From: Clostridia bacterium
GTDB lineage: Bacteria > Bacillota > Clostridia > UMGS1883
Assembly (NCBI GenBank): GCA_017472685.1
Contig: JAFUOO010000022.1
Location: 77,483 to 141,482, forward strand
DNA length: 64,000 bases
Reading direction: 5' to 3'
Below the pieces are notes generated by a model, which saw only the letters and a program-made list of their open reading frames with translations, was not told the origin of the DNA and did no database searches. The translations under genes and the position numbers were made by a program. This document shows, piece by piece, positions 1,667-54,945 of the stretch (positions within the stretch are counted from its first letter, which is position 1; the number at the start of each line of letters is the position of its first letter).

Positions 1667-1909
1667 AATTTCCTATTACGACACAAATTGGTAACAAAAA
1701 GTCACATTTTTCTATTGAAATGTGTGGAAACATGAGTTATAATTAAATTGCCTTTCAGGGAGAGCAGTCATGTTCCGGAGTAACCACGGAGCATGAGTGT
1801 TTTCCCTATTTTTTTTGAATTGCAGTGCTATTTGAAAAATAGGTTGATTTTATCCTATAATTGATATATATTTAGACTTAGAAATATATGGTAAGGATGT
1901 AGGTGACAA

Positions 1910-2887
1910 ATGAATAAAGTTAATTTCTGTATTCCTTTTACCGGATATAGCTGTCACAGTTTTTTGAGCGATTTTGCAGCAGTACATACTTATATTACTG
2001 AAACAATGCTAACGGGAGAGAGCGATAAGAATTTGGGCTGGTATCAAGAAATGTATTACTTTTTATTTGGTACCTTAACAGGTTGCAACTCATTTTTGCA
2101 GAATATGGAACAAAGCCGTAATGATCCTGCTGAAGATATTGAAACTGTAGATTTTTGCATGAAATTCTGCGGATATGCTTATGATATGGTTAGGCACAAC
2201 ATGGAAAATGCTTTAATTGAGTCGATAGACAGAGGATATCCTGTCATTGCGAAAATGAAGAATGCTGAATTTGGTCCGTCACGTGTGTTGATTGGCTATG
2301 ATAAGGATAAGATTATTGTTCCTGCTTGTAGCAATGAACAAAGCCCGCCACCTACTGCTCCTATTTATGAAGAAATCGAATGTTTATATATTATTCGTGG
2401 AATTGGTCGAAAAGAACGTACATTACTGGATGGCTTTAGAAACATTGAAAAATCGTTAAAGGAAAGTATCCAATATGGTGCATGGGCTAACTCTGCAGAG
2501 GTTTTTGATTATTTTGGCAAAAATATGAAAGATACGCCCTTTGAGGAAATAAAGTCCCGATTTGAGGCGGTGAAGAATATTGCGTGGAATTTTGACCGCT
2601 GTCACAATTTTGCTGAAACTTTTCGCAAACGTATAATACCAGACTTGAGGGATATTCGTTTAGATGAATATTGTAAGCAGATAGATTATTGGTATAAACA
2701 ATCTCTTGAACAGCAGTGGCAGTTAATTGCATTGCACGACTGCCGTGATTGGAGTGAACGGCGATGGGACTGCTTGGAAGCAGGTATGTGTACTTGCGTT
2801 AACTGGACAATGGAAAGCTTGGCAAAAAACGATGAAGAGGTATTGAAGGTTGTTCAGCAAATGATTGAAGTATTAGAAGCTGATTAA
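1910..2887 (+). CDS. hypothetical protein (325 aa)
   Basis: Long ORF following an AT-rich upstream region. No family recognised from the sequence. Confidence 0.4.
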   Translation: MNKVNFCIPFTGYSCHSFLSDFAAVHTYITETMLTGESDKNLGWYQEMYYFLFGTLTGCNSFLQNMEQSRNDPAEDIETVDFCMKFCGYAYDMVRHNMENALIESIDRGYPVIAKMKNAEFGPSRVLIGYDKDKIIVPACSNEQSPPPTAPIYEEIECLYIIRGIGRKERTLLDGFRNIEKSLKESIQYGAWANSAEVFDYFGKNMKDTPFEEIKSRFEAVKNIAWNFDRCHNFAETFRKRIIPDLRDIRLDEYCKQIDYWYKQSLEQQWQLIALHDCRDWSERRWDCLEAGMCTCVNWTMESLAKNDEEVLKVVQQMIEVLEAD

Positions 2888-2927
2888 GCGGACCGTCGGG
2901 GACGCCGGTCCCTACGGTAAATATATT

Positions 2928-2958
2928 AAAAGAGACGGTTCAATGAACCGTCTCTTTT
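2928..2958. terminator. bidirectional rho-independent terminator between convergent genes
   Basis: Perfect hairpin aaaagagacggtt-caatg-aaccgtctctttt, flanked by A/T runs on both sides. Confidence 0.7.
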
Positions 2959-2969
2959 AATATATTTAC

Positions 2970-3530
2970 TTATTCATTATGAGCAGCTAAATAAGCGTTT
3001 CTGCCCTGTTCGTAGAGGTTGTTGCCTTCGCTGTCAATAATAACAACCAAGGGCATATCTTCTACGTAGAGCTTTCTGAGTGCTTCTGCACCCAAATCTT
3101 CAAATGCGATGAGTTCGGCACTCTTAATGCACTTAGCAAGGAGTGCGCCTGCACCGCCGATAGCACCAAAGTATACACCACTATGTTCCTTCATAGCTTC
3201 AACTACTTCGGGAAGACGGGCACCCTTACCAATCATGCCGCGTGCACCCACGGACATCATTGTAGGAGCGTAAGCGTCCATACGACCGCTTGTTGTAGGG
3301 CCTGCAGAGCCGATAACCTGACCGGGCTTAGCAGGAGTAGGACCTACATAGTAGATTGTAGCATCAGTAGGGTCAAATGGAAGAGGTTCGCCTTTTGCGA
3401 TAGATTCACACATTCTCTTGTGACCTGCGTCACGGGATGTGTAAATAGTACCTGTAAGAAGTACGCTGTCGCCAGCCTTAAGAGTTTTTGCAAGCTCTGC
3501 GGTTAAGGGGAGTGTAATTCTCTTTTCCAT
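2970..3530 (-). CDS. class I fumarate hydratase / Fe-S hydro-lyase, beta subunit (fumarate/tartrate family)
   Basis: 186 aa with the beta-subunit motifs GPTTSGRMD, GKGARLPEV and YFGAIGGAGALL. Its stop overlaps the start of the alpha subunit. Confidence 0.8.
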   Translation of the reverse strand: MEKRITLPLTAELAKTLKAGDSVLLTGTIYTSRDAGHKRMCESIAKGEPLPFDPTDATIYYVGPTPAKPGQVIGSAGPTTSGRMDAYAPTMMSVGARGMIGKGARLPEVVEAMKEHSGVYFGAIGGAGALLAKCIKSAELIAFEDLGAEALRKLYVEDMPLVVIIDSEGNNLYEQGRNAYLAAHNE

Positions 3531-4372
3531 TATATCACCTCCGACTTATGTCTTGTAACGTGGCAGTTGATGTTGATAGCACAGGGCATACCTGCGATAT
3601 GTGTGGGCAAAGTTTCGATATTTAAACCGATAGCTGTGCTCTTGCCGCCAAAGCCCTGAGGACCAATGCCTAATTTATTAACCTTTTCAAGCATTTCCTT
3701 TTCCAAATCTGCATAGAAGGGGTCGGGGTTGGGAACATCGATAGGACGCATAAGAGCCTTCTTAGCAAGGAGCGCCGCCTTATCAAATGTACCGCCGATG
3801 CCTACGCCGATTGTCATGGGAGGACAGGGGTTGGGACCTGCAATTTCAACTGTTTCAAGAATGAAATCCTTAATGCCCTGTAAGCCAGCTGAGGGCTTGA
3901 ACATACGGATTGCACTCATGTTTTCGCTACCGAAGCCCTTGGGACCTACAGTAACCTTAACACTTTCACCGTCAACGATTTCTGTATAAATCATTGCGGG
4001 AGTGTTGTCGCCTGTGTTACCACGGCGAACGGGGTCAGCTACAACGCTCTTTCTAAGATAGCCGTTAGCATAACCACGGCGAACACCTTCGTTGATGGCA
4101 TCTGTAAGGTTGCCGCCAACAAAATGAACGTCCTGACCGATTTCAAGAAATACGCAAGCCATACCTGTGTCCTGACAAATGGGAACACATTCTTTTTCTG
4201 CGATTTCATAGTTTGTGATAATATTGTCTAATACACCTTTTGCAATGTCCCAGTCTTCACAAGCACGGCAGGTTTTGATAGCATCCTGCACGTCCTTGGG
4301 GAGGAACTGGTTTGCTTCGATACAAAGCTTTTCAACTACATCTGTAATTGTCTGTACCTGAATTTCGCGCAT
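3530..4372 (-). CDS. class I fumarate hydratase / Fe-S hydro-lyase, alpha subunit
   Basis: 280 aa. CQDTGMACVF and GVGIGGTFDKAALLAK motifs are typical of the FumA/TtdA alpha subunit. Confidence 0.8.
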   Translation of the reverse strand: MREIQVQTITDVVEKLCIEANQFLPKDVQDAIKTCRACEDWDIAKGVLDNIITNYEIAEKECVPICQDTGMACVFLEIGQDVHFVGGNLTDAINEGVRRGYANGYLRKSVVADPVRRGNTGDNTPAMIYTEIVDGESVKVTVGPKGFGSENMSAIRMFKPSAGLQGIKDFILETVEIAGPNPCPPMTIGVGIGGTFDKAALLAKKALMRPIDVPNPDPFYADLEKEMLEKVNKLGIGPQGFGGKSTAIGLNIETLPTHIAGMPCAININCHVTRHKSEVI

Positions 4373-4428
4373 TTTAAGTCACCTCTGTAATTAGAATGAA
4401 TAATGAATGATGAATAATGAATAATTTC

Positions 4429-4459
4429 GGAAGGAACACGAGCAAACCCGTGTTCCTTT
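4429..4459 (-). terminator. hairpin terminator downstream of the flavoprotein gene (minus strand)
   Basis: gaaggaacacg-agcaaaccc-gtgttccttc with a U-rich tract on the minus-strand transcript. It lies between the frdA-like stop and the fumarase start. Confidence 0.5.
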
Positions 4460-4473
4460 CTATTCATTATATC

Positions 4474-6072
4474 TTATCTTTCATGTCTTGCGTACTTGGG
4501 CAATAAGAGGGGAGAAACCTGTTCGGATTCAAGCCCTGCAGCGGCAAGTTCGTCAGCATATGCCTTAACGTGGTCAAGGTTCATGTTGCCAAGTTCAACT
4601 TCTCTAGCCTTAGCTGCAGCTGCCTTACCTGCGTTACGACCGAATACGATAATGTCAAGAAGAGAATTACCCATGAGACGGTTTCTGCCGTGGATACCAC
4701 CAACAGCTTCACCTGCAACGAGGAGGTTGTCGATAGCCTTTGTAAAGCCGTCGCCACCAATCTCAAGACCACCGTTCTGGTAGTGGAGTGTGGGGTAAAC
4801 AAGGATGGGCTCTTTTCTCATATCGATACCGTAGTTAAGGTACATTCTGAGCATTGCAGGGATTCTCTTTTCGATTGTGCCTTCGCCGTGGAGGATTTCA
4901 ATCATGGGAGTATCGAGCCATACGCCACTTCCAAGAGGTGTTTCTACACCCTTGCCGTTAGCACATTCGCGGATAATAGCGGATGCGGAAACATCTCTAG
5001 TTTCAAGAGGATGAGCGTAAGCTTCGCCGTCTTTGTTAACAAGCATCGCACCGATGGAACGAACTTTTTCTGTAACGAGTGCACCGAAAATCTGTGCGGG
5101 GTATGCAACACCTGTGGGGTGGTACTGAATTGTATCCTGATAAAGAAGAGGAGCACCTGCACGGTAGCCGAGGATTAAGCCGTCAGCTGTTGCGCCATAG
5201 TGGTTAGAGGTGGGGAAGCCCTGGTAGTGAAGTCTGCCTGCACCACCTGTTGCGATGATAACAGTCTTTGCCTTTGCTACCATGTAATCGCCTGTTTCCA
5301 TGTTGAGGAGAACTGCACCTGCAACCTGACCCTTATCGTCCTTGATAAGTTCAACAGCGGATGTGAATTCAACAACGGGAATCTTACGGTTAATAACTTC
5401 GTCGCGGAGTGTACGCATGATTTCAGCACCGGAATAGTCCTTACAAGCATGCATTCTCTTTCTGGAAGTGCCGCCACCGTGTGTTGTAACCATTTCGCCG
5501 TCTTCGTTCTTGTCAAACATAACGCCCAGGTCATTTAACCAACGGATAGCATCGGGAGCTTCCATAACAAGTCTCTTCAAAAGCTCGGGACGAGCTGCAA
5601 AGTGACCGCCACCGAAAGCATCGATATAGTGCTGAACGGGGGAGTCGTTTGCCTTATCAGCTGCCTGGATACCGCCTTCAGCCATCATTGTGTTAGCGTC
5701 ACCAATACGGAGCTTTGTAACGATCATAACATCTGCGCCTGCTTCGTGAGCTTCGATAGCCGCACTGCTGCCTGCGCCGCCGCCACCGATAACAAGCACG
5801 TCTGTTTCGTAGTCAACCTTACTAAGGTCAACGTCAACGTCTAAAAGACGGCTGTTGGAGTGGAGAAGGTTACCGAGTTCTGTAGGAATTTTTTCGCCCT
5901 TGTTGGGACCAATTTTAATTTCAACAAAGCCTTCTGCCTTATAGTCGGGATGATATGATTTAAGAAGTTCATCCTTTTCTTCAGCAGTCATACGACGAGG
6001 TTCTGTCTTCATTCTTTCTGCTCTTGTTGCTTCTACCTTTTTGATAGATTCACGCATTGCTTCTGTAAACAT
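4474..6072 (-). CDS. fumarate reductase / succinate dehydrogenase family flavoprotein (FrdA-like); non-covalent FAD predicted; about 90-aa N-terminal extension
   Basis: GGGGAGSS dinucleotide fold, catalytic-region motif QYHPTG, and C-terminal capping domain. There is no His in the segment MMAEGGIQAA where the covalent-FAD His sits in SdhA. The first 90 residues precede the FAD-binding fold. Confidence 0.8.
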   Translation of the reverse strand: MFTEAMRESIKKVEATRAERMKTEPRRMTAEEKDELLKSYHPDYKAEGFVEIKIGPNKGEKIPTELGNLLHSNSRLLDVDVDLSKVDYETDVLVIGGGGAGSSAAIEAHEAGADVMIVTKLRIGDANTMMAEGGIQAADKANDSPVQHYIDAFGGGHFAARPELLKRLVMEAPDAIRWLNDLGVMFDKNEDGEMVTTHGGGTSRKRMHACKDYSGAEIMRTLRDEVINRKIPVVEFTSAVELIKDDKGQVAGAVLLNMETGDYMVAKAKTVIIATGGAGRLHYQGFPTSNHYGATADGLILGYRAGAPLLYQDTIQYHPTGVAYPAQIFGALVTEKVRSIGAMLVNKDGEAYAHPLETRDVSASAIIRECANGKGVETPLGSGVWLDTPMIEILHGEGTIEKRIPAMLRMYLNYGIDMRKEPILVYPTLHYQNGGLEIGGDGFTKAIDNLLVAGEAVGGIHGRNRLMGNSLLDIIVFGRNAGKAAAAKAREVELGNMNLDHVKAYADELAAAGLESEQVSPLLLPKYARHER

Positions 6073-6084
6073 ATTTATCCCTCC

Positions 6085-6759
6085 TTATTTCTCAATTTCT
6101 CTTGTGTTGTAAAGTTCTTTCATTTCAGTGATGGGCTTAGCCATAACCTGTTCGATAAGCTCATCGTACTGACCGTGGTTGATTTCATCAACTCTTACCT
6201 TAAGGTGCTCTGTTTCAGGAGCAATGTACTTACCTGTAAGGCGTCTTGCAAGAAGACCAACCATGGGATGAGTGATGCCTGCAGGACAACGAACAGAGCA
6301 GCAGCCGCAGCCTACGCAGTCGAAGGATTCTTCTGCGCACTTTTCATATTCGCCACGCTGTGCGTAAGCGATGTACTGCATAACGTTCAAGTCCTGTGTA
6401 CAAGCATTTGTACAAGCGTTACAGCCGATACAGCTGTAAATTTCGGGATAAAGCTCCATCATAATCTGCTGAGTGGGCTTAATCTCCTGAATATCATAAG
6501 TTCTCTTGTCCTGGGGATAGAAGGGGATAGTAGCGATGTACATGCCTTCCTGCACCTGTGTCTGGCACGCAAGACAAGTCTTTAATTCGTTCTGACCTTT
6601 AATACGGTAAATAGTAGCACAAGCACCGCAGAAACCGTGACGGCAGCCACAACCGCGTGTAAGTGTGTAACCTGCGTATTCCATAGCTGTCATGATTGTC
6701 AAATCGGCAGGCACCTTGTACTGTTTACCGAAGAAATATACATTAACCATGTTTTCCAT
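6085..6759 (-). CDS. Fe-S subunit of fumarate reductase/succinate dehydrogenase type (2Fe-2S plus two Cys clusters), short soluble form
   Basis: 224 aa. CGCRHGFCGAC...C resembles a plant-ferredoxin 2Fe-2S motif, and CIGCNACTNAC and CVGCGCCSVRCP are cubane motifs. It sits immediately upstream of the flavoprotein gene. No membrane-anchor genes are present. Confidence 0.7.
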   Translation of the reverse strand: MENMVNVYFFGKQYKVPADLTIMTAMEYAGYTLTRGCGCRHGFCGACATIYRIKGQNELKTCLACQTQVQEGMYIATIPFYPQDKRTYDIQEIKPTQQIMMELYPEIYSCIGCNACTNACTQDLNVMQYIAYAQRGEYEKCAEESFDCVGCGCCSVRCPAGITHPMVGLLARRLTGKYIAPETEHLKVRVDEINHGQYDELIEQVMAKPITEMKELYNTREIEK

Positions 6760-6822
6760 TTCTGAATCTTCCTTTCGTTAATTTGAATGCAAGAGGGCGA
6801 GTAATGCATGCCCTCCCTTGCC

Positions 6823-7680
6823 TTAATACTCTGCCGGGATTTCGTCGAGCTCGTCGCAGTGGAATACGGGACCGTCCTTACAAACGTACTTACTACCTAT
6901 ATTACATCTGCCGCACTTGCCAACGCCGCACTTCATACGAAGCTCAAGTGTTGTGATAATCTGCTTCTTGTCAAAGCCCATTTCCTGTAAGCCCTGAAGT
7001 ACGAACTTAATCATAATCGGAGGACCGCAGATAAGAGCAACCTTGTTTGTATCAAAGCCGATTTCCTTAAGATAGGAAGGAACAAAGCCAACGTGACCGT
7101 CCCAGCCTTCCTGTTCGCGGTCGATTGTGAGGTACACATTTACGTTGGGAGCCTTCATCCATACTTCCTGGATTTCCTTGAGCTGAACGAGGTCGTCAGC
7201 ACTTCTTGAGCCATAGAGAATGTCAACTGTGCCGTAGTTTTCACGGTTGTCTAAAACATAGTTGATAACACTACGAAGAGGAGCAAGACCGATACCACCT
7301 GCGATGAAGAGAAGGTTTTTGCCTTTAAGCTCTGTTTCAACGGGGAAGTTGTTACCGTAAGGTCCTCTTACTGTGATTTCTTCGCCTACTTCCATAGCAT
7401 GGAGATAGTCTGTAAGAACACCACACTTTTTAATGGAAAATTCCTGGAATTCCTTATTTGTGGGGGAGGAAGTAATAGAAAACATTGCTTCACCCACACC
7501 GGGAACAGACACCATAGCGCACTGACCGGGCATGTGTTCAAAGAGTTTGCTTCCGTCGGGAGCTACCACGCGGAAGGTTTTAACGTCGGGAGTTTCCTGA
7601 CGAATATCTGTTACAACGCCAACCTTAGGAATGAGTGTATCCTCATAAAAGCTGTCGTGATTGCATGTGCATTCGCTCAT
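6823..7680 (-). CDS. FAD/NAD(P)-binding oxidoreductase with C-terminal 2Fe-2S (FlxA / AsrB / HydG-like)
   Basis: 285 aa. It has a ferredoxin-NADP-reductase-like fold (GGIGLAPL) and a C-terminal CGVGKCGRC...C motif. Its stop overlaps the upstream gene. Confidence 0.7.
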   Translation of the reverse strand: MSECTCNHDSFYEDTLIPKVGVVTDIRQETPDVKTFRVVAPDGSKLFEHMPGQCAMVSVPGVGEAMFSITSSPTNKEFQEFSIKKCGVLTDYLHAMEVGEEITVRGPYGNNFPVETELKGKNLLFIAGGIGLAPLRSVINYVLDNRENYGTVDILYGSRSADDLVQLKEIQEVWMKAPNVNVYLTIDREQEGWDGHVGFVPSYLKEIGFDTNKVALICGPPIMIKFVLQGLQEMGFDKKQIITTLELRMKCGVGKCGRCNIGSKYVCKDGPVFHCDELDEIPAEY

Positions 7681-8711
7681 TATCTGTTACCTCCCTTTTC
7701 AAAAGCTTTAATAACCTTTACAATGTTTAAGCCTATGGGGCACTTGTCAACGCAACGTCCGCAGCCTACGCAGGAGTACATACCGTCGTTATTCTGAGGG
7801 AAGTATACAAGCTTGTGCATAAATCTCTGGCGATAACGCTGCATCTGGCTTGTACGGTTGTTACCATGAGCCATCATTGTAAAGTCTGAATACATACAGG
7901 AGTCCCAGCAGCGATAGCGCTGTACGCCATTACCTGTGTTGTAGTCCTTAATATCGTAGCACTGGCATGTGGGGCACACGAAGGTACATGTACCGCAAGC
8001 AAGACAGGGCTTGTAGAGTTCTTCCCAGATGGGAGAATTGAACTTGTCAAGTAATACTGCGTCCTTACCCCAGCCTTCGAGAGAAAGACTTGAATAGGGA
8101 AGACGGGAAACGATTTCCTTAATGGAAGCCTTTTGGGCTTCTACCTTTGCTTCGTCAGCATCTGTAAGAAGAGAGGCAACCTGCTTTGTGAGCTTTTCGC
8201 CCTTCTCTGTAACTGCATTCCAGTACATTTCGTCGCCAATCATATATACCACTACATCGCCTTCGGGCTGGCTAGCATCAATGCCGAAAACGTTACAGAA
8301 GCAAGCTTCCTCGGGCTGAGAGCATGCGAGAGATACGATAATGCCGTGCTCTCTTCTTGCCTTGTAGTAGGAGTCAACAGGGTCAACAAGGAAAACCTTA
8401 TCAAGCACTGCTAAACCTCTTACATCACAAGCCTTCATGCCGAATACTACAAAATCCTTATTCTGTAACTCTTCGGGAGTAATGGAAAGCTTCTTGCCAT
8501 TTCTCTTACAGGAGTATAAAGTTTCGCTCTGGGGGAAGAATGCATCTTTAGGAGACTTAACAGTTTTTAATGTGTCAAGGTCCACAAGCTGCTCTTCGTC
8601 CCATGCTGCAAAGTTAACGCTGCCGTTAATATTACAGGGAACGTAAAGTTCGTTTGCGTCCGCAATGCAGGAGAATAATGCGGACAGATTTTCTTTATTT
8701 ATCTTGTACAT
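7680..8711 (-). CDS. 4Fe-4S protein of AsrA / HydB / FlxB type
   Basis: 343 aa with CLACGTCTFVCPTC and CVGCGRCVDKCP motifs. It is paired with the AsrB-like gene. Confidence 0.65.
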   Translation of the reverse strand: MYKINKENLSALFSCIADANELYVPCNINGSVNFAAWDEEQLVDLDTLKTVKSPKDAFFPQSETLYSCKRNGKKLSITPEELQNKDFVVFGMKACDVRGLAVLDKVFLVDPVDSYYKARREHGIIVSLACSQPEEACFCNVFGIDASQPEGDVVVYMIGDEMYWNAVTEKGEKLTKQVASLLTDADEAKVEAQKASIKEIVSRLPYSSLSLEGWGKDAVLLDKFNSPIWEELYKPCLACGTCTFVCPTCQCYDIKDYNTGNGVQRYRCWDSCMYSDFTMMAHGNNRTSQMQRYRQRFMHKLVYFPQNNDGMYSCVGCGRCVDKCPIGLNIVKVIKAFEKGGNR

Positions 8712-8714
8712 ACA

Positions 8715-9692
8715 TTATCCCCTTTCTGTAACAATACTGGGCTCAACATCATCAAAAGTGAATGCTGTGAGCGGGCCTTTTGTTTCGCTATCTTCGCCTG
8801 CCTGGAACTCGCCGTAGAATGTGTCAATATCCTTGATGAACTTGCGGTTGAAAAGGTGAAGCGGAATGCCCTGAGGACAAACACGGCTGCATTCACCGCA
8901 GTCAGTACATCTGCCTGCAACATGGAAGGCACGGATAATGTGGAACATCTTTTCTTCGAAGGAGTCAACGTTTGCCTTTGTTGCTTCGTCAAACTTATTT
9001 GAGTCAAATACGCACTTACGGCAGGAGCAAGCAGGGCATACGTTACGGCATGCGTTACAACGGATACACTTACTAAGCTCCTTCTTGAAAAATTCAAACT
9101 TTTCCATGGGGCTCATTGCTTCAATTTTTTCGATTTCGGCAAAGCGTTCCGCATCCTTTGTATCACGGCTGTCGAGCATTACTTCATCACAAATCTGATG
9201 CTCTTTGCCCTTACAAACGTGGCAGCGTTCAAGCATAGCGTCGTTGTAGCTTACTTCTTTATCACCGTAAAGTGTTTTAACTGTGAGTGTTTCGCAGTCG
9301 GAGTTAATGTCGGCACCGCTAACTTCAAGGATACCCTTAACACCCATAGCCTTAATAGCCTCAATATCAAGCTTACCCTTACAGCCAACGCCGATGATGT
9401 AAGCCTTTTCGCGGTCAACTCTGTGTTCCTTTATAAGCTGGTTGAAGCTGTAGGTATCGCAGGGCTTTAAGAACACAAGTGTCTTGCCGTCCTTCTTACT
9501 TGCTTCAATCATGTACTTTGAAAGGTTTGCACCACAGAAGCCGTCATAGACAAAGTCATTGTCTAAGCTTTCTGCAGTTTCAAAATAGGAGGGTTCGGGG
9601 TTGAAGCCTAAATCGCCTTTTTTCCAACCAAGGACACGAGCAACTTCACCCGATGCCAAAAGTTCTTTTGCGCGGTCGATTAATCTTTGCAT
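8715..9692 (-). CDS. F420-hydrogenase-beta-like (FrhB/FlxC-type) Fe-S flavoprotein
   Basis: 325 aa with CIRCNACRNVCPAC and CTDCGECSRVCP motifs, and the typical Hdr-cluster context. Confidence 0.6.
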   Translation of the reverse strand: MQRLIDRAKELLASGEVARVLGWKKGDLGFNPEPSYFETAESLDNDFVYDGFCGANLSKYMIEASKKDGKTLVFLKPCDTYSFNQLIKEHRVDREKAYIIGVGCKGKLDIEAIKAMGVKGILEVSGADINSDCETLTVKTLYGDKEVSYNDAMLERCHVCKGKEHQICDEVMLDSRDTKDAERFAEIEKIEAMSPMEKFEFFKKELSKCIRCNACRNVCPACSCRKCVFDSNKFDEATKANVDSFEEKMFHIIRAFHVAGRCTDCGECSRVCPQGIPLHLFNRKFIKDIDTFYGEFQAGEDSETKGPLTAFTFDDVEPSIVTERG

Positions 9693-10117
9693 CTCAAATC
9701 CCCCAATCTTACGTTTTCGCCAAGTGAACGGATTTTGTCAACAAATTCGTTCATTGTTGTGGAGAACTTAACGCCTTCTGCAGCAGATACCCATTCAACA
9801 CGTGTTCTGCCGTTCTCAATGCCTAAGTATTCAAGCATGGAGAAGAGGAGTGTCATTCTTCTTCTTGCGTAGTAGTTACCTGTGGAATAGTGACAGTCAC
9901 CGGGGTGGCAACCACACATGATTACGCCGTCAGCGCCCTTTTCAAATGCACGGAGAATAAACATGGGGTTTACTCGGCAGGAGCAGGGAACACGGATAAT
10001 CTTAACGTCGGCGGGGTACTGAAGACGGCTGCTGCCTGCAAGGTCAGCGCCTGCATAACTACACCAGTTACAGCAAAATGCCACTATTTTAGGCTTAAAT
10101 TCATTGTTCATCGACAT
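9680..10117 (-). CDS. mvhD: MvhD / FlxD-like methyl-viologen-reducing hydrogenase delta-subunit homolog
   Basis: 145 aa. FCCNWCSY...CSCRV...CGCHPGDCHY is the MvhD signature. It overlaps the hdrA stop. Confidence 0.8.
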   Translation of the reverse strand: MSMNNEFKPKIVAFCCNWCSYAGADLAGSSRLQYPADVKIIRVPCSCRVNPMFILRAFEKGADGVIMCGCHPGDCHYSTGNYYARRRMTLLFSMLEYLGIENGRTRVEWVSAAEGVKFSTTMNEFVDKIRSLGENVRLGDLRCKD

Positions 10118-12126
10118 ATTGCATCCACCTCCGCTATAATCTGTCTGTTACTAAAGCCCTGAAGGTCCATAGCACCGGAGGGACAAGCAACCGTACAAGC
10201 ACCGCAGCCCTGGCAGAGAGCGTTGTTAACACGAGCAACGCGTCTGTCTTCGCGGATACCGTGGTCGTTAACCTGTACAACCTCGTAGCTGATAGCACCG
10301 TAGGGACATACATTTGCACAAACGGAGCAACCGTTACAAAGAAGCTCGTCGCTCTTTGCTGTGCAGGGGTTGGTCAAAAGCTTATCCTTTGCAAGAAGAC
10401 CGATTGCCTTAACCGCTGCCGCACCTGCCTGTGCAACTGTTTCGGGAATATCCTTGGGTCCCTGACATACGCCGGAGAGGAAAATACCTGCTGTGGGCGA
10501 TTCAACGGGACGAAGCTTTGCGTGAGATTCTGTAAGGAAGTTGTTTGTGTCAATGCTTGCTGTGAGCATTGTTGCAATACCTCTTACACTTGCTTCGGGC
10601 TCAATAGCTGTTGCAAGAACAACCATGTCTGCCTTCATTTTAATCTGCTTGTTGTCAAGAAGGTCACTTGCCTGTACAAGAAGTGAGCCATCGGGCTGGG
10701 GAGCAACCTTACCAACCTGACCCTTGATGTAGTTTACGCCGTATTCTTCAACAGCTCTGCGGTAGAACTCATCAAAGTTCTTACCGGGAGTACGAACGTC
10801 GATATAGAATACAGTAACCTTAACATCCGGATACTTGTCACGGATGAGCATTGCGTGCTTAGCTGTGTACATACAGCAAATCTTTGAGCAGTAGCTCTTG
10901 CCGCGGTTGTCATTACAACGACTTCCTACGCACTGTACAAATACAATGTGCTCGGGGTGCTTGCCGTCACTAAGACGCTCAAGGTGACCCTTTGTAGGAC
11001 CTGCCGCGTTCATAACTCTTTCCAATTCCAAAGATGTGATAACATCCTTGGACTGGTTATAAGCGTATTCGTCGTAGTTATCAAGCTTTATTGTGTCAAA
11101 GCCTGTTGCAACAACGATTGCGCCGTACTTTTCTGTTACGATTTCGTCTACCTGGTCGTAATTGATAGCGCCTGCCTGACAAACCTTTTCACAAAGACCG
11201 CACTTGCCTGTCTTGAACTTGATGCAGGCATCACGGTCAATTACGGGAACATTGGGAATAGCCTGAGCAAAGGGAGTGTAGATAGCACTGCGATTGTTAA
11301 GACCACGGTTGAATTCGCTCGGTGTCTTCTTGGAAGGACACTTTTCCTGACAAACACCGCAGCCTGTACATTTGTCCATATCTACGCTTCTTGCTTTCTT
11401 TCTTATATCTACTGTGAAATCACCAACGAAGCCTGTTACCTTGTCAACCTCGCTGTATGTGTAGATGTTAATCTTTTCGTGAGCTGCAGCCTCAACCATT
11501 TTAGGTGTGAGGATACAAGCGGAACAGTCAAGTGTGGGGAAGGTCTTATCAAGCTGGCTCATTCTGCCGCCGATGGAAGGAGTCTTCTCAACAATGTCAA
11601 CCTCGTAGCCTGCATCTGCAATGTCGAGAGCTGTCTGGATACCTGCAATACCGCCACCGATAACAAGTGCACGCTTTGTAACGCGGCTTTCACCGGGGAA
11701 CAAGGGCGCATTGAGGTTAACCTTTGCAATAGCTGCTCTGGCAAGAATAACTGCCTTTTCGGTAGCTTCTTCCATATCCTTATGAATCCAGGAGCAGTGC
11801 TCACGGATGTTTGCAATTTCAACCATGTAGGGGTTAAGACCTGCTCTTTCAGCAGCCTTACGGAATGTACCCTCGTGCATTCTGGGAGAACAGGAGCAAA
11901 CTACGATACCGGAAAGATTCTTTTCCTTAACAGCATCCAATATTTTTGCCTGACCTGCCTCGGAGCACATGTACTGATAATCCTCGCAATGTACAACACT
12001 GGGCTCCTGTGATATAATTTCTACAACCTTTTTAACGTCAACTGTGGCTGCAATGTTACTGCCGCAGTGACATACAAATACACCAATTCTCTGCATTTTG
12101 TCACCTCCTGTAACGTCTGAACGCAC
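10108..12126 (-). CDS. hdrA: heterodisulfide reductase subunit A-like (HdrA; FAD, multiple 4Fe-4S)
   Basis: 672 aa. N-terminal VFVCHCGSNI, FAD fold VIGGGIAGIQTA, and several CxxCxxCxxxCP ferredoxin motifs. Confidence 0.85.
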   Translation of the reverse strand: MRSDVTGGDKMQRIGVFVCHCGSNIAATVDVKKVVEIISQEPSVVHCEDYQYMCSEAGQAKILDAVKEKNLSGIVVCSCSPRMHEGTFRKAAERAGLNPYMVEIANIREHCSWIHKDMEEATEKAVILARAAIAKVNLNAPLFPGESRVTKRALVIGGGIAGIQTALDIADAGYEVDIVEKTPSIGGRMSQLDKTFPTLDCSACILTPKMVEAAAHEKINIYTYSEVDKVTGFVGDFTVDIRKKARSVDMDKCTGCGVCQEKCPSKKTPSEFNRGLNNRSAIYTPFAQAIPNVPVIDRDACIKFKTGKCGLCEKVCQAGAINYDQVDEIVTEKYGAIVVATGFDTIKLDNYDEYAYNQSKDVITSLELERVMNAAGPTKGHLERLSDGKHPEHIVFVQCVGSRCNDNRGKSYCSKICCMYTAKHAMLIRDKYPDVKVTVFYIDVRTPGKNFDEFYRRAVEEYGVNYIKGQVGKVAPQPDGSLLVQASDLLDNKQIKMKADMVVLATAIEPEASVRGIATMLTASIDTNNFLTESHAKLRPVESPTAGIFLSGVCQGPKDIPETVAQAGAAAVKAIGLLAKDKLLTNPCTAKSDELLCNGCSVCANVCPYGAISYEVVQVNDHGIREDRRVARVNNALCQGCGACTVACPSGAMDLQGFSNRQIIAEVDAICR

Positions 12127-12490
12127 TTACCAGAAGCTGCTGAGGAAGCTCCTCGTCCAAAAGTTCGGGAATTTCGTCAGCCTTAAGGTAATCTGCGCCT
12201 TTTTCGCGGACAACAAGCTGTCTTGCCGCATCAATGAGCTTGCCGGGCTGTACACTTCTGGGACAACGCTCAATACAAGCAAAGCAGGAAAGACACTTCC
12301 AGAGAGACTTGGAAGAAGCTAAAGCTTCAATGTCGTCGTTTACTACATAAGAAACAAACTGATGAGGCTTAATGTCCATTTCATCAAAAGCGGGGCAGGT
12401 TGCAGAGCACTTACCGCACTTCATACATTTAAGAGGATTAACGCCGCTGATTTCTTTTATCTTGTCAGCTTTATTTGCACCATGACTCAT
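12101..12490 (-). CDS. hdrC: heterodisulfide reductase subunit C-like (two 4Fe-4S)
   Basis: 129 aa with CMKCGKCSATCP and CLSCFACIERCP motifs. Confidence 0.75.
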   Translation of the reverse strand: MSHGANKADKIKEISGVNPLKCMKCGKCSATCPAFDEMDIKPHQFVSYVVNDDIEALASSKSLWKCLSCFACIERCPRSVQPGKLIDAARQLVVREKGADYLKADEIPELLDEELPQQLLVSAFRRYRR

Positions 12491-13284
12491 TCTGCATCCT
12501 CCTTAACGCCCAAAGCTTCAGCAAGAAGCTCTGTGAAATAATATACGGGAACATCGCCTACTGTGTTCTTGTTTAAGTTATACATACAAAGAGGGCATGC
12601 AGTAATAAGCATTTCAGCACCGAAGCCCTTTGCGCTTTCTACAATTGTGTCACACATGGATTTAGCCATGTCCTTTTCTTTCAAGGAAATGTAACCGCCG
12701 CAGCATTCGTTGCGGTAGGGGTATACGACAGGTGTTGCACCAATTGCCTTGATAAAGTCTTCTATAATAGTGGGGTTTTCGGGATTGTCAAAAGCAAGGA
12801 TTTCGCCCGGGCGGAGAAGAAGGCAACCGTAGTATGCACCAATCTTCTTGCCTGTTAAGGGGTTTGTAACCATTTTCTTAAGGTTATCAAAGCCAACACG
12901 GTCGCGGAGAACTTCCAAAAAGTGAAGAACGTTTGTTTCACCCTTGTAAGGCTCCGGGAGCTTCATGTAGTTGTTGGCACGACTCTGAATGTCGGGTACA
13001 TTTTTCATGTCGTCGTTGACACGCTTTATAACGTGATGACACGCAGAACAGAGAGTAACCAGATCCTGACCCTTTTCCTTTGCTTCATTGAGAACACGAA
13101 CGGAAGAAAGCTTTGTTGCTATTTCATCACTGCCAAGGGGATACACGCCGCCGCAGCACTGCCACTGGGTAACTTCTTCAAGCTCGAAGCCGAGAGCTTT
13201 GGCAGATGCCTTTGCGTATGCATCAAGGTCCTTAGCCTTAGTTCTCAAAGTACAACCGGGATAATATGTGTACTTCATAGTCAA
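12487..13284 (-). CDS. hdrB: heterodisulfide reductase subunit B-like (two CCG domains)
   Basis: 265 aa with YPGC...CCGG...C and a second ...CCGG... cysteine-rich CCG motif. Confidence 0.8.
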   Translation of the reverse strand: MTMKYTYYPGCTLRTKAKDLDAYAKASAKALGFELEEVTQWQCCGGVYPLGSDEIATKLSSVRVLNEAKEKGQDLVTLCSACHHVIKRVNDDMKNVPDIQSRANNYMKLPEPYKGETNVLHFLEVLRDRVGFDNLKKMVTNPLTGKKIGAYYGCLLLRPGEILAFDNPENPTIIEDFIKAIGATPVVYPYRNECCGGYISLKEKDMAKSMCDTIVESAKGFGAEMLITACPLCMYNLNKNTVGDVPVYYFTELLAEALGVKEDAE

Positions 13285-13323
13285 TCGTCCTTTCGTAATA
13301 ATGATATATTGAGCAATTCTATT

Positions 13324-14289
13324 TTATTCAGCCTCGGGCATGGACATATCGATCTGAGCGATAATATCCTTAAGCACCTGAGCAGATGCCTTAAGCTTGT
13401 CAATTTCACTGTTCTTAAGGTCCATGGGAATCTTGCCCTGGATACCGTTGGGACCAACAAGTGTAAGTGTGGAAAGACATACATCGTCAATGCCGTATTC
13501 GCCATGCATCATGGAGGATACTGTAGCAACGGAGTCACTTGCTGCTGTTACGATAGAACAAATCTGGCAAACAGAAGCAGATACTGCGTAGAAGGTAGCA
13601 CCCTTAGAAGCAATGATTTCGCCGCCGGACTTCTGAACGTATGTGAGCATAGCTTCCTTGTTGAGGGGAGTGAGCTTCTTGCCCATGCGTTCTGCACATT
13701 CGTAGTAGTCTTCCAATGCTACGCCTGCAACGTCAGCACAGGACCAGGGAACGAAGGAAGAGTCACCGTGTTCGCCGTATACATAAGCATGAATGTTTTT
13801 CTGAGCAACCTGAAGCTGTTCGGACAAGCCCTGCTTGAGACGTGCTGTGTCAAGGATTGTACCGGAGCCGATGATCTGGTTTTCGGGAAGACCGGAAATC
13901 TTTGTGAACACATATGTCATAATGTCAACGGGGTTAGAAACGATGATGTAAAGAGCCTTGGGAGCATACTTTACAATTTCGGGAGTGATACTCTTTAAGA
14001 TGTTAACGTTTGTCTGTGTGAGCTCGAGACGTGTCTGACCGGGCTTACGAGCAAGACCGGATGTGATGATAACGATGTCGGAATCAACAGCGTCTTCATA
14101 TTCGCCTGCTGTAACCTTAATGGGGTTACGGAAGCAAGTACCCTGGATAATGTCCATTACTTCGCCCTTTGCCTTTGTCTTGTTGATATCAATCATCACG
14201 ATTTCGGATGCGATATCACCCTGACTGAGTGTGTAAGCGATTGTGGAACCTACGCTACCTGCGCCAATGATAGTGATTTTGCTGCTCAT
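13324..14289 (-). CDS. mdh: LDH-like malate dehydrogenase (L-lactate/malate dehydrogenase family; Arg at the substrate-specificity position)
   Basis: IIGAGSVGS Rossmann fold and catalytic GEHGDS. The specificity segment reads GLARKPGQTR, which has Arg where lactate dehydrogenases have Gln. It is the first gene of the hdr/flx/frd cluster. Confidence 0.7.
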   Translation of the reverse strand: MSSKITIIGAGSVGSTIAYTLSQGDIASEIVMIDINKTKAKGEVMDIIQGTCFRNPIKVTAGEYEDAVDSDIVIITSGLARKPGQTRLELTQTNVNILKSITPEIVKYAPKALYIIVSNPVDIMTYVFTKISGLPENQIIGSGTILDTARLKQGLSEQLQVAQKNIHAYVYGEHGDSSFVPWSCADVAGVALEDYYECAERMGKKLTPLNKEAMLTYVQKSGGEIIASKGATFYAVSASVCQICSIVTAASDSVATVSSMMHGEYGIDDVCLSTLTLVGPNGIQGKIPMDLKNSEIDKLKASAQVLKDIIAQIDMSMPEAE

Positions 14290-14603
14290 AGTAAAATCTC
14301 CTTTTTATAAAAATATTTTTTAAACTTAAACACGGTTTACACCACATCATATTGTACCATAATATATAAGTTGGGACAAGTGTTTTTTGCAAAAAAAATC
14401 GCTGAAAAAGCAGTAAAATATAAAAAAATATGTATAAAATGCCGTAAATACTGGATTTAAGAGTGATATGTGGATAATAACAGAATTTTTAACAAGATTT
14501 TGGTAATCTTTTTGTAGTTTTTCACATTGAATTTGAAACGGGAAAATGTTATACTTAAAATGTATTTCCAAAAAATTGTTTTTGAAGGAAAAGGAGAGTT
14601 ATC

Positions 14604-16016
14604 ATGGGCGGTTTTTTTGGTGTTGCAAGTAAAGAGGACTGCGTGTTTGACTTGTTCTTTGGTGTGGATTATCACAGCCATTTAGGCTCACGCCGTGGCG
14701 GTATGGCAGTCTACGATAAAGAAACAGGCTTTTCGAGGTCCATTCACAAAATAGACAATGCACCCTTCAGGACAAAATTTGAAAACGAAGCCAATACAAT
14801 GCACGGTAACTTAGGCGTTGCAAGTATTTCGGACTATGAGCCTCAGCCTATACTTGTGAGAAGCAATAACGGTACGTTTGCTATCACAACAGTAGGCAGG
14901 GTAAACAATATTGACCAAATCGTTGAAAAAATGCTCCAGAAGCATACTCACTTTTATGAAATGCAGTCTGGCGGCATCAACCAGACTGAGCTTATTGCTG
15001 CGCTTATCAACCAGAAGGATAATCTCATTGAGGGTATTCAGTATGCCCAGGAGGTTGTGGAGGGCTCAATAAGCATTCTGCTTTTAACACCCCTCGGTAT
15101 TTATGCAGCGCGTGATAAAATGGGCAGAACACCTGTTGTAATTGGCAAAAAGGACAACGCATTCTGCGTATGTATGGAATGCTATGCGCATAACAAGCTT
15201 GGCTATCATGACTATAAGGAGCTTGGTCCCGGCGAAATTGTTGTTATAGAGCCCGACAAGGTTACAACCTTGGTTGACCCCGGAAAAGAAATGAAAATGT
15301 GTACCTTCTTCTGGGTTTACTACGGCTATCCCTCCTCGGCTTATGAAGGCATGAGCGTAGAGCAGATGCGTTACAACTGCGGCAAGTGCCTTGCCCAGCG
15401 CGACGGCAACAACATAGATGTTGACATTGTAGCAGGTGTGCCCGACAGTGGCTTAGCAACAGCAATCGGCTATTCCAACGAATCTGTAAAGCCCTTTGCT
15501 CGTCCCTTTATAAAATATACTCCTGCATGGTCACGTTCCTTTACACCTACAATACAGGCAAAGCGCAAGCAGATTGCAAAAATGAAGCTTATTCCCATCA
15601 GAACACTTATTGAGGACAAAAAGCTATTAATGGTGGATGACTCAATCGTACGCGGTACACAGCTTGGCGAAACCACCGACTTTCTGTATGAATGCGGCGC
15701 AAAGGAAGTTCACATAAGAACAGCATCACCTCCGGTAATGTACGGCTGTAAGTATCTTAACTTCTCAACCTCGTCCTCCGAAATGGAGCTTATTACAAGA
15801 CGTGTTATAACCGAGCTTGAGGGCAAAGAGCCTGACCACAATACAATATATGAATATTCAATACCCGGCACGGAAAAGTACAACAAAATGGTTGAAACAA
15901 TCCGTCAAAAGCTTAATTTCACAACCTTGGAATATTTAAGACTTGACGATATGCTTAAGTCAACGGGTGTTGACGAAAGCAAGCTTTGTACTTACTGCTG
16001 GAACGGTAAAGAATAA
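14604..16016 (+). CDS. amidophosphoribosyltransferase (PurF)-like protein lacking the N-terminal nucleophile Cys
   Basis: 470 aa with the PRPP-binding motif LMVDDSIVRGTQ and a C-terminal CTYCWNGK Fe-S-type motif. The N-terminus is MGGFFGV rather than MCG... An AAGGAG ribosome-binding site lies 8 nt upstream. Confidence 0.7.
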   Translation: MGGFFGVASKEDCVFDLFFGVDYHSHLGSRRGGMAVYDKETGFSRSIHKIDNAPFRTKFENEANTMHGNLGVASISDYEPQPILVRSNNGTFAITTVGRVNNIDQIVEKMLQKHTHFYEMQSGGINQTELIAALINQKDNLIEGIQYAQEVVEGSISILLLTPLGIYAARDKMGRTPVVIGKKDNAFCVCMECYAHNKLGYHDYKELGPGEIVVIEPDKVTTLVDPGKEMKMCTFFWVYYGYPSSAYEGMSVEQMRYNCGKCLAQRDGNNIDVDIVAGVPDSGLATAIGYSNESVKPFARPFIKYTPAWSRSFTPTIQAKRKQIAKMKLIPIRTLIEDKKLLMVDDSIVRGTQLGETTDFLYECGAKEVHIRTASPPVMYGCKYLNFSTSSSEMELITRRVITELEGKEPDHNTIYEYSIPGTEKYNKMVETIRQKLNFTTLEYLRLDDMLKSTGVDESKLCTYCWNGKE

Positions 16017-16054: not shown

Positions 16055-16342
16055 TCAGCGATATAAATTCCTTGCGGAATTTGCGATATTCCCCTTTGGG
16101 GAGCGATATGTTGCAAGCAACGTGATATGTCCTGCGGGACGTTGGGAATTTATATTATATCGAGTTTGTAGGGACCGGCGTCCTCGACGGTCCGAAAAAA
16201 CATATCGAATTTACGAAGTAAATATATCGAGCAAACGAAGTCTGCATATCGACAAACAAGCTGTCTTTTTATATAAAAAGCTTGAAATTCGGGGTTTTGT
16301 GTGCTATAATGGCAAGGATTTGGAAAAAGAAAGGTGAATAAA

Positions 16343-18046: not shown

Positions 18047-18997
18047 CTATAGCGCATTAGTTAAAAGTGTGTAAAAAATCATGCATGAAAGCAAAACAAA
18101 ACATATTAGCGAAAACAGCGAAAGCCTTTTATAGGACAAAATATTTTTTATACGTGACGATAAATTTGCACCGCCGAAAGGAGAGGAAAACGCCGCTTTT
18201 CTCTCGAGAATATTTAAAAGAGAAAGAGCATAATCCTTCTTCTCTTTAAGGCTTAAATTTTTAACAACAGCTTCATCACAGGAGTGTTCCATATCCTGCA
18301 AAAAGCATTTCAAAAAGAGCCATGCAAAGGGGTTAAACCAATGAATGACAGCTGTTATAATTGCCAATATCCGCCGGAGATTGTCCATACGCTTTATGTG
18401 AATGCTTTCATGAGCAATAATGTAGGTAAGGTCAGCATCTCTAAAAGCTACGGGAATAATAATTTTAGGCTTAACAATGCCGTAAACGGCAGGGGAAGGT
18501 GTGCTTTCACAGGTGTAAATATTGTCTTTAAAATGAATGGCAGTTTTGTTGTTAAGAATTGTTTTTATGTAAAGACAAAGAAAAACAATAAAAAGGAACA
18601 GCACAACGCATAGCCATATGATTGCCGAAGTATTGAAAATGCCCTCCAACACATTTGTTTTGTAAGTTATGGGAAAGTAGCTTTCGGCTGCGCCCACAGA
18701 ATTCATCATGGACATTGACGGCGAATATGGATAATAAGAAGGAGCGCTGTATTCATATGCAACGGTGGTTTTAATTGAAAGCTCACTGAGCAAATTCATA
18801 AATGAATACTTGCTGTCAAGACCTATGGGCACCAAAAAACGAATAAACGGAATTATCCACAAAGCATAAATCATTCTTCGGGGAATTCTTTTTATATACC
18901 CAAGAAGCAAAATAATAATTCCCGTAAATGTGCCCATAATGCTCATGTTAAATACCCAATAGAATATTTCGCCGAGCATACTGTCACCTCTTTTCAA
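18047..18997 (-). CDS. BlaR1/MecR1-like M56 family membrane metallopeptidase (no sensor domain)
   Basis: 316 aa with a HESIH zinc motif (IIAHESIHIKRMD) and transmembrane segments. It overlaps the blaI-like stop. Confidence 0.7.
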   Translation of the reverse strand: MKRGDSMLGEIFYWVFNMSIMGTFTGIIILLLGYIKRIPRRMIYALWIIPFIRFLVPIGLDSKYSFMNLLSELSIKTTVAYEYSAPSYYPYSPSMSMMNSVGAAESYFPITYKTNVLEGIFNTSAIIWLCVVLFLFIVFLCLYIKTILNNKTAIHFKDNIYTCESTPSPAVYGIVKPKIIIPVAFRDADLTYIIAHESIHIKRMDNLRRILAIITAVIHWFNPFAWLFLKCFLQDMEHSCDEAVVKNLSLKEKKDYALSLLNILERKAAFSSPFGGANLSSRIKNILSYKRLSLFSLICFVLLSCMIFYTLLTNAL

Positions 18998-50816: not shown

Positions 50817-50832
50817 TCAAAGGAGCAAGGTT

Positions 50833-52305: not shown

Positions 52306-52307
52306 AA

Positions 52308-54359: not shown

Positions 54360-54370
54360 AGGAGTAAAAA

Positions 54371-54931: not shown

Positions 54932-54945
54932 AATTCCACAAAACA

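Follow-up and report, generated by a model that had tools for sequence, protein, structure and literature searches.

A clostridial operon coupling an Flx-Hdr module to a soluble fumarate reductase-like pair: a candidate electron-bifurcating NADH:fumarate reductase

Introduction

We analyzed a 64,000-nucleotide stretch of DNA from a Clostridia bacterium (GTDB lineage UMGS1883; GenBank assembly GCA_017472685.1, contig JAFUOO010000022.1, positions 77,483 to 141,482), here called the window. It carries a twelve-gene cluster in which a seven-gene Flx-Hdr module stands beside an iron-sulfur (FeS) protein and a flavoprotein resembling FrdB and FrdA, together with genes for a malate dehydrogenase (MDH) and a class I fumarase. 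Our best reading, which on balance we favor, is that the cluster encodes a cytoplasmic electron-bifurcating NADH:fumarate/ferredoxin oxidoreductase.

A similar arrangement has been described in Pseudoclostridium thermosuccinogenes as a "succinate operon" composed of a fumarate hydratase, a seven-gene Flx-Hdr module, two genes for a fumarate reductase and one hypothetical gene (Koendjbiharie et al. 2020, BMC Microbiol, PMC7282089). The same proposal, that of a ferredoxin-reducing fumarate reductase, is made in a 2019 preprint (Koendjbiharie and van Kranenburg, 10.20944/preprints201912.0288.v1; reference 15 of PMC7282089). The operon is highly expressed and coordinately regulated, with about 600 to 12,700 fragments per kilobase per million (FPKM) over two conditions (PMC7282089 supplement), and the addition of H2 abolished succinate formation, which the authors read as ferredoxin coupling (PMC7282089). 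Judged by gene order and sizes alone, that operon is like the window cluster: in the order hdrB, hdrC, (hdrA, flxD, flxC, flxB, flxA), frdB and frdA, its genes measure 783, 324, 5347 (five genes together), 675 and 1602 bp, against 792, 390, ~5270, 675 and 1599 bp in the window, and the frdB-frdA gap is 12 nt in both. By the same order and lengths, the window contains the nine-gene hdrBCA-flxDCBA-frdBA unit beside a fumarate hydratase. The two differ at their ends, since the P. thermosuccinogenes operon begins with a class II fumC and ends with a small hypothetical gene, whereas the window cluster begins with mdh and ends with class I fumAB. The idea of this operon is already published, and the bifurcation hypothesis is not new. 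The earlier note on this DNA, made from the letters alone, overestimated its novelty, but the functional linkage and the fumarate specificity that it proposed are well supported, as described below.

The seven Flx and Hdr subunits are of the same types as those of FlxABCD-HdrABC in Desulfovibrio vulgaris and carry the same cofactor motifs; in that complex, as represented in the papers that cite its description, the donor is presumed to be NADH, and bifurcation is presumed to take place at HdrA (Ramos et al. 2015, cited in PMC7282089 and PMC6315080). The two systems would differ in their high-potential acceptor, which is a DsrC disulfide in D. vulgaris and, as proposed, fumarate through FrdBA in the window, and their genomic partners are an alcohol dehydrogenase and dicarboxylate enzymes, respectively. 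Gene order also differs, being flxABCD-hdrABC in D. vulgaris and hdrBCA-flxDCBA in the window.

A second point of comparison is the thiol:fumarate reductase TfrAB of Methanothermobacter, as outlined in a later paper (Heim et al. 1998, cited in PMC6315080). It is soluble, reduces fumarate and has no membrane anchor, as would be the case for the window pair, and TfrA is the top model for the window flavoprotein. TfrB combines a [2Fe-2S] domain, a dicluster domain and a CCG domain in one protein, whereas the window splits this architecture across the FrdB-like protein, HdrC and HdrB. Compared with the TfrA model, the window flavoprotein lacks about 120 C-terminal residues and has an added N-terminal extension; it reaches 343 bits where the equivalog cut-off is 718, and TfrB is matched only piecewise.

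Direct feeding of a soluble fumarate reductase by an Hdr-based module has likewise been proposed before. In tubeworm symbionts and Thioflavicoccus, tfrAB genes interspersed with flxABCD-hdrABC were proposed to encode a complex delivering electrons to fumarate reductase (Rubin-Blum et al. 2019, PMC6315080), and TFR-Mvh-Hdr clusters are described in Cloacimonadota (Williams et al., PMC8542988). These clusters of the reductive tricarboxylic acid cycle, which we liken to the window by gene content, share with it the idea of the coupling; they belong to an autotrophic setting with OGOR and ATP-citrate lyase, whereas the context in the window is fermentative.

Results

In the window, 12 co-directional and tightly packed open reading frames (ORFs) occupy the minus strand from 2970 to 14289, in the order mdh, hdrB, hdrC, hdrA, flxD/mvhD, flxC, flxB, flxA, frdB-like, frdA-like, fumA and fumB (Table 1). 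The ORFs and profile searches agree in this with what the earlier note had described, and the same 12 genes appear in the gene caller output for an identical metagenome contig (L002), which also supports the chosen start of hdrA. Adjacent genes overlap at hdrB/hdrC (4 nt), hdrA/flxD (10 nt), flxD/flxC (13 nt), flxB/flxA (1 nt) and fumA/fumB (1 nt), or are separated by small gaps at hdrC-hdrA (4 nt), flxC-flxB (3 nt) and frdB-frdA (12 nt). Only three gaps exceed 12 nt: mdh-hdrB (~45 nt), flxA-frdB (63 nt) and frdA-fumA (101 nt). Each of the 12 genes is preceded by a Shine-Dalgarno-like motif.

Upstream of mdh, a consensus scan of the 314-nt intergenic region returned one extended -10 type site only; this region has no Rfam match, so no regulatory RNA was seen there. 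The terminator 3' of fumB has a minimum free energy (MFE) of -37.3 kcal/mol (z -8.5), with a stem of about 25 pairs by RNAfold and of at most 20 in the terminator scan. The same scan found no canonical intrinsic terminator inside the cluster on the minus strand. The 63 nt between flxA and frdB hold neither a canonical terminator nor a convincing promoter, and the hairpin there lacks statistical significance (z -1.4). The frdA-fumA gap (4373-4473) contains a strong hairpin followed by TTCATTA-like repeats; the scan did not score it as a minus-strand terminator, and it may act in attenuation, processing or stabilization. Because of the overlaps and short gaps, the lack of a canonical internal terminator, the terminator at the end and the promoter-like site upstream, we conclude that the 12 genes form one operon. 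Independent transcription of frdBA, which according to the earlier note would have undone its interpretation, was considered and rejected, since the flxA-frdB gap holds no terminator or good promoter and measures only 20 nt in most species.

We scanned one representative genome per species, which gave at least 596 loci, and compared gene order in the best 80 of these (71 to 91% identity). Fifty-nine were long enough to show the full core, the other 21 being cut by contig ends. In all 59, hdrB-hdrC-hdrA-flxD-flxC-flxB-flxA-frdB-frdA occurs in the same order, and none is rearranged. Such conservation of the core order places the arrangement far beyond chance. The frdB-like gene always lies directly upstream of frdA, with a median gap of 14 nt, and the median flxA-frdB gap is 20 nt. 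This strict synteny, the short gap, and the lack of a terminator or promoter within it strongly support a functional link between Flx-Hdr and FrdBA.

The ends of the cluster vary more. Directly upstream of hdrB, mdh is found in 48 of the 58 loci with room for it. Downstream, 57 loci extend at least 3 kb past frdA: 26 have both a transporter of the AAE family (two Asp-Al_Ex domains) and fumAB, 13 the transporter only, 11 (the type to which the window belongs) fumAB only, and 7 neither. The transporter thus follows frdA in 39 of the 57 loci, and in 26 it separates frdA from fumA; in the window it may have been lost from this gap. Members of the Asp-Al_Ex family include SucE, a succinate exporter of Corynebacterium, and AspT, which exchanges aspartate for alanine.

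The best 80 loci come from genomes and metagenome-assembled genomes (MAGs) labeled Oscillospiraceae, Acutalibacteraceae, Lachnospiraceae and Christensenellaceae, and include the cultured carriers Sporofaciens musculi, Fusicatenibacter faecihominis, Christensenella tenuis, Ohessyouella blattaphilus and Lachnospiraceae bacterium 3-2; P. thermosuccinogenes is not one of these 80. At about 90% identity, the flavoprotein forms hundreds of protein clusters in MAGs of gut and rumen Clostridia, and some FrdB clusters have thousands of metagenomic members. In public annotation, the two proteins appear only as "FAD-binding protein" or "4Fe-4S ferredoxin."

Two side observations concern the history of the cluster. 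The G+C content of the operon (3000-14000) is 45 to 49%, compared with 36 to 42% in the 3-kb flanks on either side, and FrdA is 80 to 90% identical between MAGs labeled Lachnospiraceae, Oscillospiraceae and Acutalibacteraceae and 74% identical to a Treponema-labeled locus (L080). The G+C offset and the high identity across family labels suggest that the whole cluster spread horizontally among gut anaerobes, or that there are binning errors.

The cofactor domains and motifs that define HdrA, HdrB, HdrC and FlxA to FlxD of FlxABCD-HdrABC are present in the window. HdrB matches the methanogen HdrB structures 8rvv and 5odc over its full length (E 2e-35) and retains all ten cysteine ligands of the two noncubane [4Fe-4S] sites; its profile scores are almost equal for SdhE, a CCG protein that belongs to type-E complex II (138 bits), and HdrB (133 bits). 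HdrA contains a thioredoxin-reductase-like flavin adenine dinucleotide (FAD)/Rossmann domain and complete cysteine sets for six [4Fe-4S] clusters, and its HdrA2 score falls short of the 1100-bit cut-off because the model spans MvhD as a fused part, whereas MvhD has a gene of its own here. The identity of FlxC rests only on dicluster motifs and a weak paralogy to FlxB (~300 residues, E 3e-5).

The flavoprotein matches SdhA/FrdA structures across residues 88 to 505 (E 5e-66 to 1e-49). It carries the His-Pro-Thr motif, the Glu/Arg pair, the proton-donor Arg and the dicarboxylate-binding His and Arg of the SdhA/FrdA superfamily, and H317, E334, R337, R358, H429 and R464, which serve dicarboxylate binding and catalysis, are invariant across the family. 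An AlphaFold2 (AF2) model, with a predicted local distance difference test score (pLDDT) of 81 and a predicted template modeling score (pTM) of 0.86, has E. coli FrdA (1kf6_A, E 4e-30) as its top fold match in the PDB. These sequence and model data support well the assignment as a fumarate/succinate enzyme with predicted fumarate specificity. Among NCBIfam models, TfrA scores best, and the best NadB (L-aspartate oxidase) model stands below the Tfr and Sdh models (258 bits, cut-off 639).

The protein also departs from its canonical relatives. The histidine that binds FAD covalently is replaced by Asn126, and this Asn is invariant family-wide. No Succ_DH_flav_C domain (PF02910) is found, the alignment to FrdA stops at about residue 428 of 577 to 602, and both the helical and the C-terminal domain are absent. 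At the N-terminus, a conserved extension of 90 residues is modeled with high confidence. Compared with complex II, the locus shares the flavoprotein fold and active site, an SdhB-type [2Fe-2S] motif, and a CCG neighbor for which SdhE is the precedent. It has no covalent FAD, C-terminal domain, anchor genes or quinone. By describing the pair as a membrane-anchorless FrdAB, the earlier note understated how far the two proteins diverge from canonical FrdAB.

Its partner, the FrdB-like protein, has the SdhB-type CxxxxCxxC...C motif. Its similarity to SdhB/FrdB profiles is remote (E ~3e-5; TIGR00384, 22 bits against a cut-off of 88), and in profile searches against the PDB, with weak SdhB- and RnfC-type matches, the dicluster half is closer to RnfC. 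The second dicluster motif has four cysteines, as for a [4Fe-4S] cluster at the position of the [3Fe-4S] cluster of complex II. There is no CCG domain in this protein. Positions 19-85, 122-220 and 354-487 of the TfrB model are covered jointly by the FrdB N-terminus, HdrC and HdrB.

The flanking genes encode dicarboxylate enzymes. Whether the first of them is a malate dehydrogenase, as the earlier note had it, depends on the evidence used. By whole-protein NCBIfam scores, L-lactate dehydrogenase (LDH) is favored, as this model passes its cut-off (346 bits against 339) and that of MDH misses its own (276 against 283). However, the substrate-specificity position (Q102/R102), in GLARKPGQTR, is Arg, and every readable homologue at the head of the operon keeps it, in xRK[PA]GQ[ST]R. 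Gln102Arg is the classical switch between the two specificities, Arg marking malate dehydrogenase and Gln LDH. On account of this Arg, we consider the product an oxaloacetate-reducing enzyme. The last two genes match the Fumerase and Fumerase_C domains, and the tartrate dehydratase models TtdA and TtdB both remain below their own cut-offs. The specificity Arg, the fumAB scores above curated cut-offs and the transporter in 39 of 57 loci argue for a succinate context.

Relatives of the FrdBA pair also occur outside the Clostridia. After clustering at 50% identity, only about ten full-length flavoprotein clusters carry the N-terminal extension. One family member, P0123, is a natural FrdB-FrdA fusion of 727 aa (L088 5250-7433, from a MAG, with unrelated neighbors). 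A large archaeal clade (Bathyarchaeia and Asgard) is 55 to 57% identical to the flavoprotein. In the Asgard MAG GCA_052584985.1 (L085 2563-11656), the gene order is hdrA-mvhD-mvhG-mvhA-hycI-hdrC-hdrB-frdB-frdA, apparently an H2-driven counterpart of the window operon; in a bathyarchaeon, the pair follows malic enzyme and fumAB genes. In MAGs of marine Gammaproteobacteria (L086; L087 9366-12891), frdB-like, frdA-like and NuoF-like genes (Complex1_51K plus NADH_4Fe-4S) overlap by 4 nt, and this three-gene unit is, by its domains, a candidate for a simple soluble NADH:fumarate reductase. Because the pair is joined to Flx-Hdr, Mvh-Hdr and NuoF-like modules, FrdB appears to take its electrons from protein FeS partners. 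FrdBA would thus be a portable fumarate-reducing module, whose coupling to HdrBC is predicted with two donors, NADH via Flx and H2 via Mvh.

Two minor points concern these relatives. The hdrA ORF of the Asgard cluster is broken near 4143 of L085, possibly by a selenocysteine, a frameshift or an assembly error. A family member of 542 aa (P0404) is annotated in Prochlorococcus sp. MIT 1201.

Table 1. Genes and signals of the twelve-gene cluster (positions in the window)
Feature	Position	Strand	Basis
mdh, LDH-family malate dehydrogenase (321 aa)	13324..14289	-	Ldh_1_N/C; specificity Arg
hdrB (263 aa from ATG)	12487..13278	-	two CCG domains; ORF open to 13284
hdrC (129 aa)	12101..12490	-	two CxxCxxCxxxC motifs; HdrC-type dicluster
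hdrA (662 aa from ATG at 12096)	10108..12096	-	HdrA2 786 bits, E 5e-236; ORF open to GTG 12126
flxD/mvhD-like (145 aa)	9680..10117	-	PF02662 FlpD E 1e-55; VhuD 135 bits
flxC-like FeS protein (325 aa)	8715..9692	-	dicluster motifs; HydB/AsrA-like
flxB-like FeS protein (343 aa), sulfhydrogenase beta/AsrA type	7680..8711	-	Fer4_22 E 1.5e-31; ShyB 197, AsrA 153 bits
flxA-like NAD(P)H/FAD/[2Fe-2S] subunit (285 aa)	6823..7680	-	FAD_binding_6, NAD_binding_1, DHODB_Fe-S_bind; HydG/ShyC/AsrB-like
frdB-like FeS subunit (224 aa)	6085..6759	-	Fer2_4 + dicluster; SdhB-type [2Fe-2S] motif, two CxxCxxCxxxC(P)
frdA-like flavoprotein (532 aa)	4474..6072	-	FAD_binding_2 E 2e-68; FAD + capping domains
fumA, class I fumarate hydratase alpha (280 aa)	3530..4372	-	NF004885 416 bits (cut-off 276); PF05681
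fumB, class I fumarate hydratase beta (186 aa)	2970..3530	-	NF005310 288 bits (cut-off 238); PF05683
promoter-like site TTGTCC-17 nt-(TG)TACAAT, predicted	14351..14379	-	upstream of mdh; consensus scan
12-bp G+C-rich hairpin, frdA-fumA gap	4429..4460	-	without U-tract; region MFE -27.8 kcal/mol, z -4.3
bidirectional intrinsic terminator, 3' of fumB	2920..2966	both	stem flanked by A/T runs

Discussion

According to the model that we favor, the operon would convert oxaloacetate to malate, fumarate and succinate in the cytoplasm and independently of quinones, with MDH and the two-subunit class I fumarase supplying the fumarate. Electrons taken from NADH by FlxA would reach the HdrA FAD by way of FlxB, FlxC and FlxD, and each pair would be split there. 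The low-potential electron would leave through the ferredoxin domains of HdrA to ferredoxin. The high-potential electron would travel through HdrC and the noncubane clusters of HdrB into the FeS chain of the FrdB-like protein, and from there to the non-covalent FAD of the flavoprotein and to fumarate. The net reaction would be 2 NADH + fumarate + 2 Fd(ox) -> 2 NAD+ + succinate + 2 Fd(red). Reduced ferredoxin would then serve Rnf or a hydrogenase, and succinate would exit via the AAE transporter where it is present.

The gene identities, the intact cofactor and catalytic motifs, the strict conservation of the nine-gene core and its setting among dicarboxylate genes are seen directly. We infer that NADH is the donor and ferredoxin the co-acceptor, that FeS clusters connect HdrBC directly with FrdB, and that the complex works reductively. 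Bifurcation, although plausible, is unproven; it is suggested by the intact HdrA and by the ~350 mV between NADH and fumarate. The standard potentials are -320 mV for NADH and +30 mV for fumarate, a gap sufficient to reduce ferredoxin. A direct FeS wire is suggested by the missing CCG domain in the FrdB-like protein, the occurrence of FrdBA with a NuoF-like partner, the joining of CCG and SdhB parts in TfrB and SdhE, and the lack of a thiol-carrier gene. The reductive direction is suggested by the missing flavinylated His and by the succinate-producing host of the homologous operon.

Several observations weigh against this model. The gene families that the earlier note had named are recovered by profile searches, with the scores of the Hdr, Flx and Frd subunits all below the NCBIfam curated equivalog cut-offs. 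The AF2 model of the FrdB-like protein is poor and unfit for a fold test (32 close homologues; pLDDT 60, pTM 0.38). HdrB has an apparently complete disulfide-reducing site, and a thiol/disulfide couple may remain involved. Judging by the NuoF-like variant, FrdBA can probably use NADH in the absence of Hdr, and catalysis as such would then not require Hdr. The 64-kb window has no gene for ferredoxin, Rnf or a hydrogenase; a scan of its 20-64 kb part returned none of these and no gene for phosphoenolpyruvate (PEP) carboxykinase or an AAE transporter. In the searchable literature, we found genomic proposals only, and no biochemical evidence for bifurcation or activity of this or a homologous complex.

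These points bear on the alternatives to different degrees. One of them, which we consider unlikely, is a thiol shuttle: Flx-HdrABC would bifurcate to ferredoxin and to a disulfide at HdrB, and FrdBA together with HdrB would re-oxidize the thiol with fumarate, as in Tfr. The rank of TfrA as top NCBIfam model, the joint coverage of TfrB by the FrdB N-terminus, HdrC and HdrB, and the ten intact cysteines of the disulfide-reducing site all speak for it, and in published texts Flx-Hdr donates to "ferredoxin (and thiols)" and its partner is called tfrAB (PMC7282089, PMC6315080). However, without a CCG domain the FrdB-like protein has no thiol-oxidizing site of its own, FrdBA also stands beside a NuoF-like subunit with no CCG protein nearby, and no gene for a DsrC-like or other thiol carrier occurs in the operon or in the conserved flanks of the loci examined. 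Moreover, this bacterial group is not known to make coenzyme M (CoM) or coenzyme B (CoB), and CoM-SH and CoB-SH are not expected in Clostridia.

The NuoF-like variant bears on a further alternative, in which Flx and Hdr only carry NADH electrons to FrdBA and no ferredoxin is reduced. Bifurcation is beyond proof from sequence, and a simple NADH module does occur with FrdBA. Nevertheless, we regard a plain wire as quite unlikely, since strict conservation extends to seven extra subunits, among them a complete HdrA that retains its C-terminal ferredoxin domains, and such an outlay would be wasteful for a simple wire. To our knowledge, all characterized HdrA complexes bifurcate. The loss of succinate formation upon H2 addition in P. 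thermosuccinogenes, read by its authors as ferredoxin coupling (PMC7282089), also speaks against a wire.

Hdr-type bifurcating enzymes are reversible in principle, and mdh, fumarase and the AAE transporter would equally suit the uptake and oxidation of succinate. The complex could then run in reverse, oxidizing succinate to fumarate with reduced ferredoxin lifting the electrons to NAD+. We give this little credence, because Asn replaces the flavinylated His throughout the family and the homologous operon is strongly expressed in a succinate producer. In mutants of this His in FrdA/SdhA, non-covalent FAD supports fumarate reduction and not succinate oxidation.

It is very improbable, and we rejected it, that the flavoprotein pair acts on L-aspartate or on another enoate or dicarboxylate, with fumarase and MDH as neighbors for other reasons: the FrdA, TfrA and NadB models all score below curated cut-offs and the family is divergent, with its N-terminal extension and missing C-terminal domain, but all fumarate-binding and catalytic residues are invariant, the profiles place TfrA (343 bits) above L-aspartate oxidase (258 bits) contrary to the case that the earlier note had raised against itself, NadB has no FeS partner whereas one is obligate here and fused in P0123, and FrdBA occurs together with fumAB, mdh or malic enzyme in bacteria as well as in the bathyarchaeon.

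If the bifurcating NADH:fumarate reductase is real, fumarate joins crotonyl-CoA, caffeyl-CoA, heterodisulfide and other compounds of this kind as a high-potential acceptor of flavin-based electron bifurcation. The energy that quinone-poor Clostridia gain from succinate formation would also be explained, with reduced ferredoxin going to Rnf or to H2. A wider proposal is conceivable, although we would stop just short of calling it probable: the noncubane clusters of HdrB would be re-purposed as a relay into an SdhB-like subunit, in the first Hdr complex with a C=C bond (that of fumarate) as terminal high-potential acceptor; FrdBA would be a portable cartridge used in at least three input modules; and quinone-free energy conservation of this kind would be widespread in gut and rumen Clostridia.

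Succinate plays a key part in cross-feeding and signaling in the gut and rumen, where the cluster is very common, and given the poor annotation, metabolic reconstructions probably miss it. Specialists who know the literature of 2019 and 2020 will not be surprised by the operon. Its abundance, poor annotation, modular relatives and cultured carriers justify an enzyme assay, and P. thermosuccinogenes, S. musculi, F. faecihominis, C. tenuis and O. blattaphilus make the hypothesis directly testable.

Other features of the window

Next to the operon, a conserved 325-aa protein is encoded at 1910-2887 (+), convergent with fumB, and occupies the same place on three metagenome contigs. It has no Pfam or NCBIfam match, and its reading as a transporter is not supported. 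The adjacent gene at 62-1666 (+) encodes a large protein with no family assigned from Pfam or NCBIfam. On the other side of the operon, and diverging from it, lies a purF-like gene (14604-16016), 3' of which a Gut-1 RNA motif (RF01706) is matched at 16056-16133 (+) with 52.2 bits, the gathering threshold being 50.

Further along, at 18047-19337 (-), a gene for a BlaI/CopY-type repressor (117 aa) overlaps that of a BlaR1-type sensor peptidase (316 aa) without the penicillin-binding half. The region 49561-63929 is likely a defense island or mobile element. It contains a GmrSD_N pair (50833-52305 and 52293-54359), a DUF234 ATPase (57785-59194), an AAA_15/AbiEii-like ATPase (59280-61310), HTH_36/DUF6017 and DUF6076 proteins, and a phage-type integrase (62733-63929).

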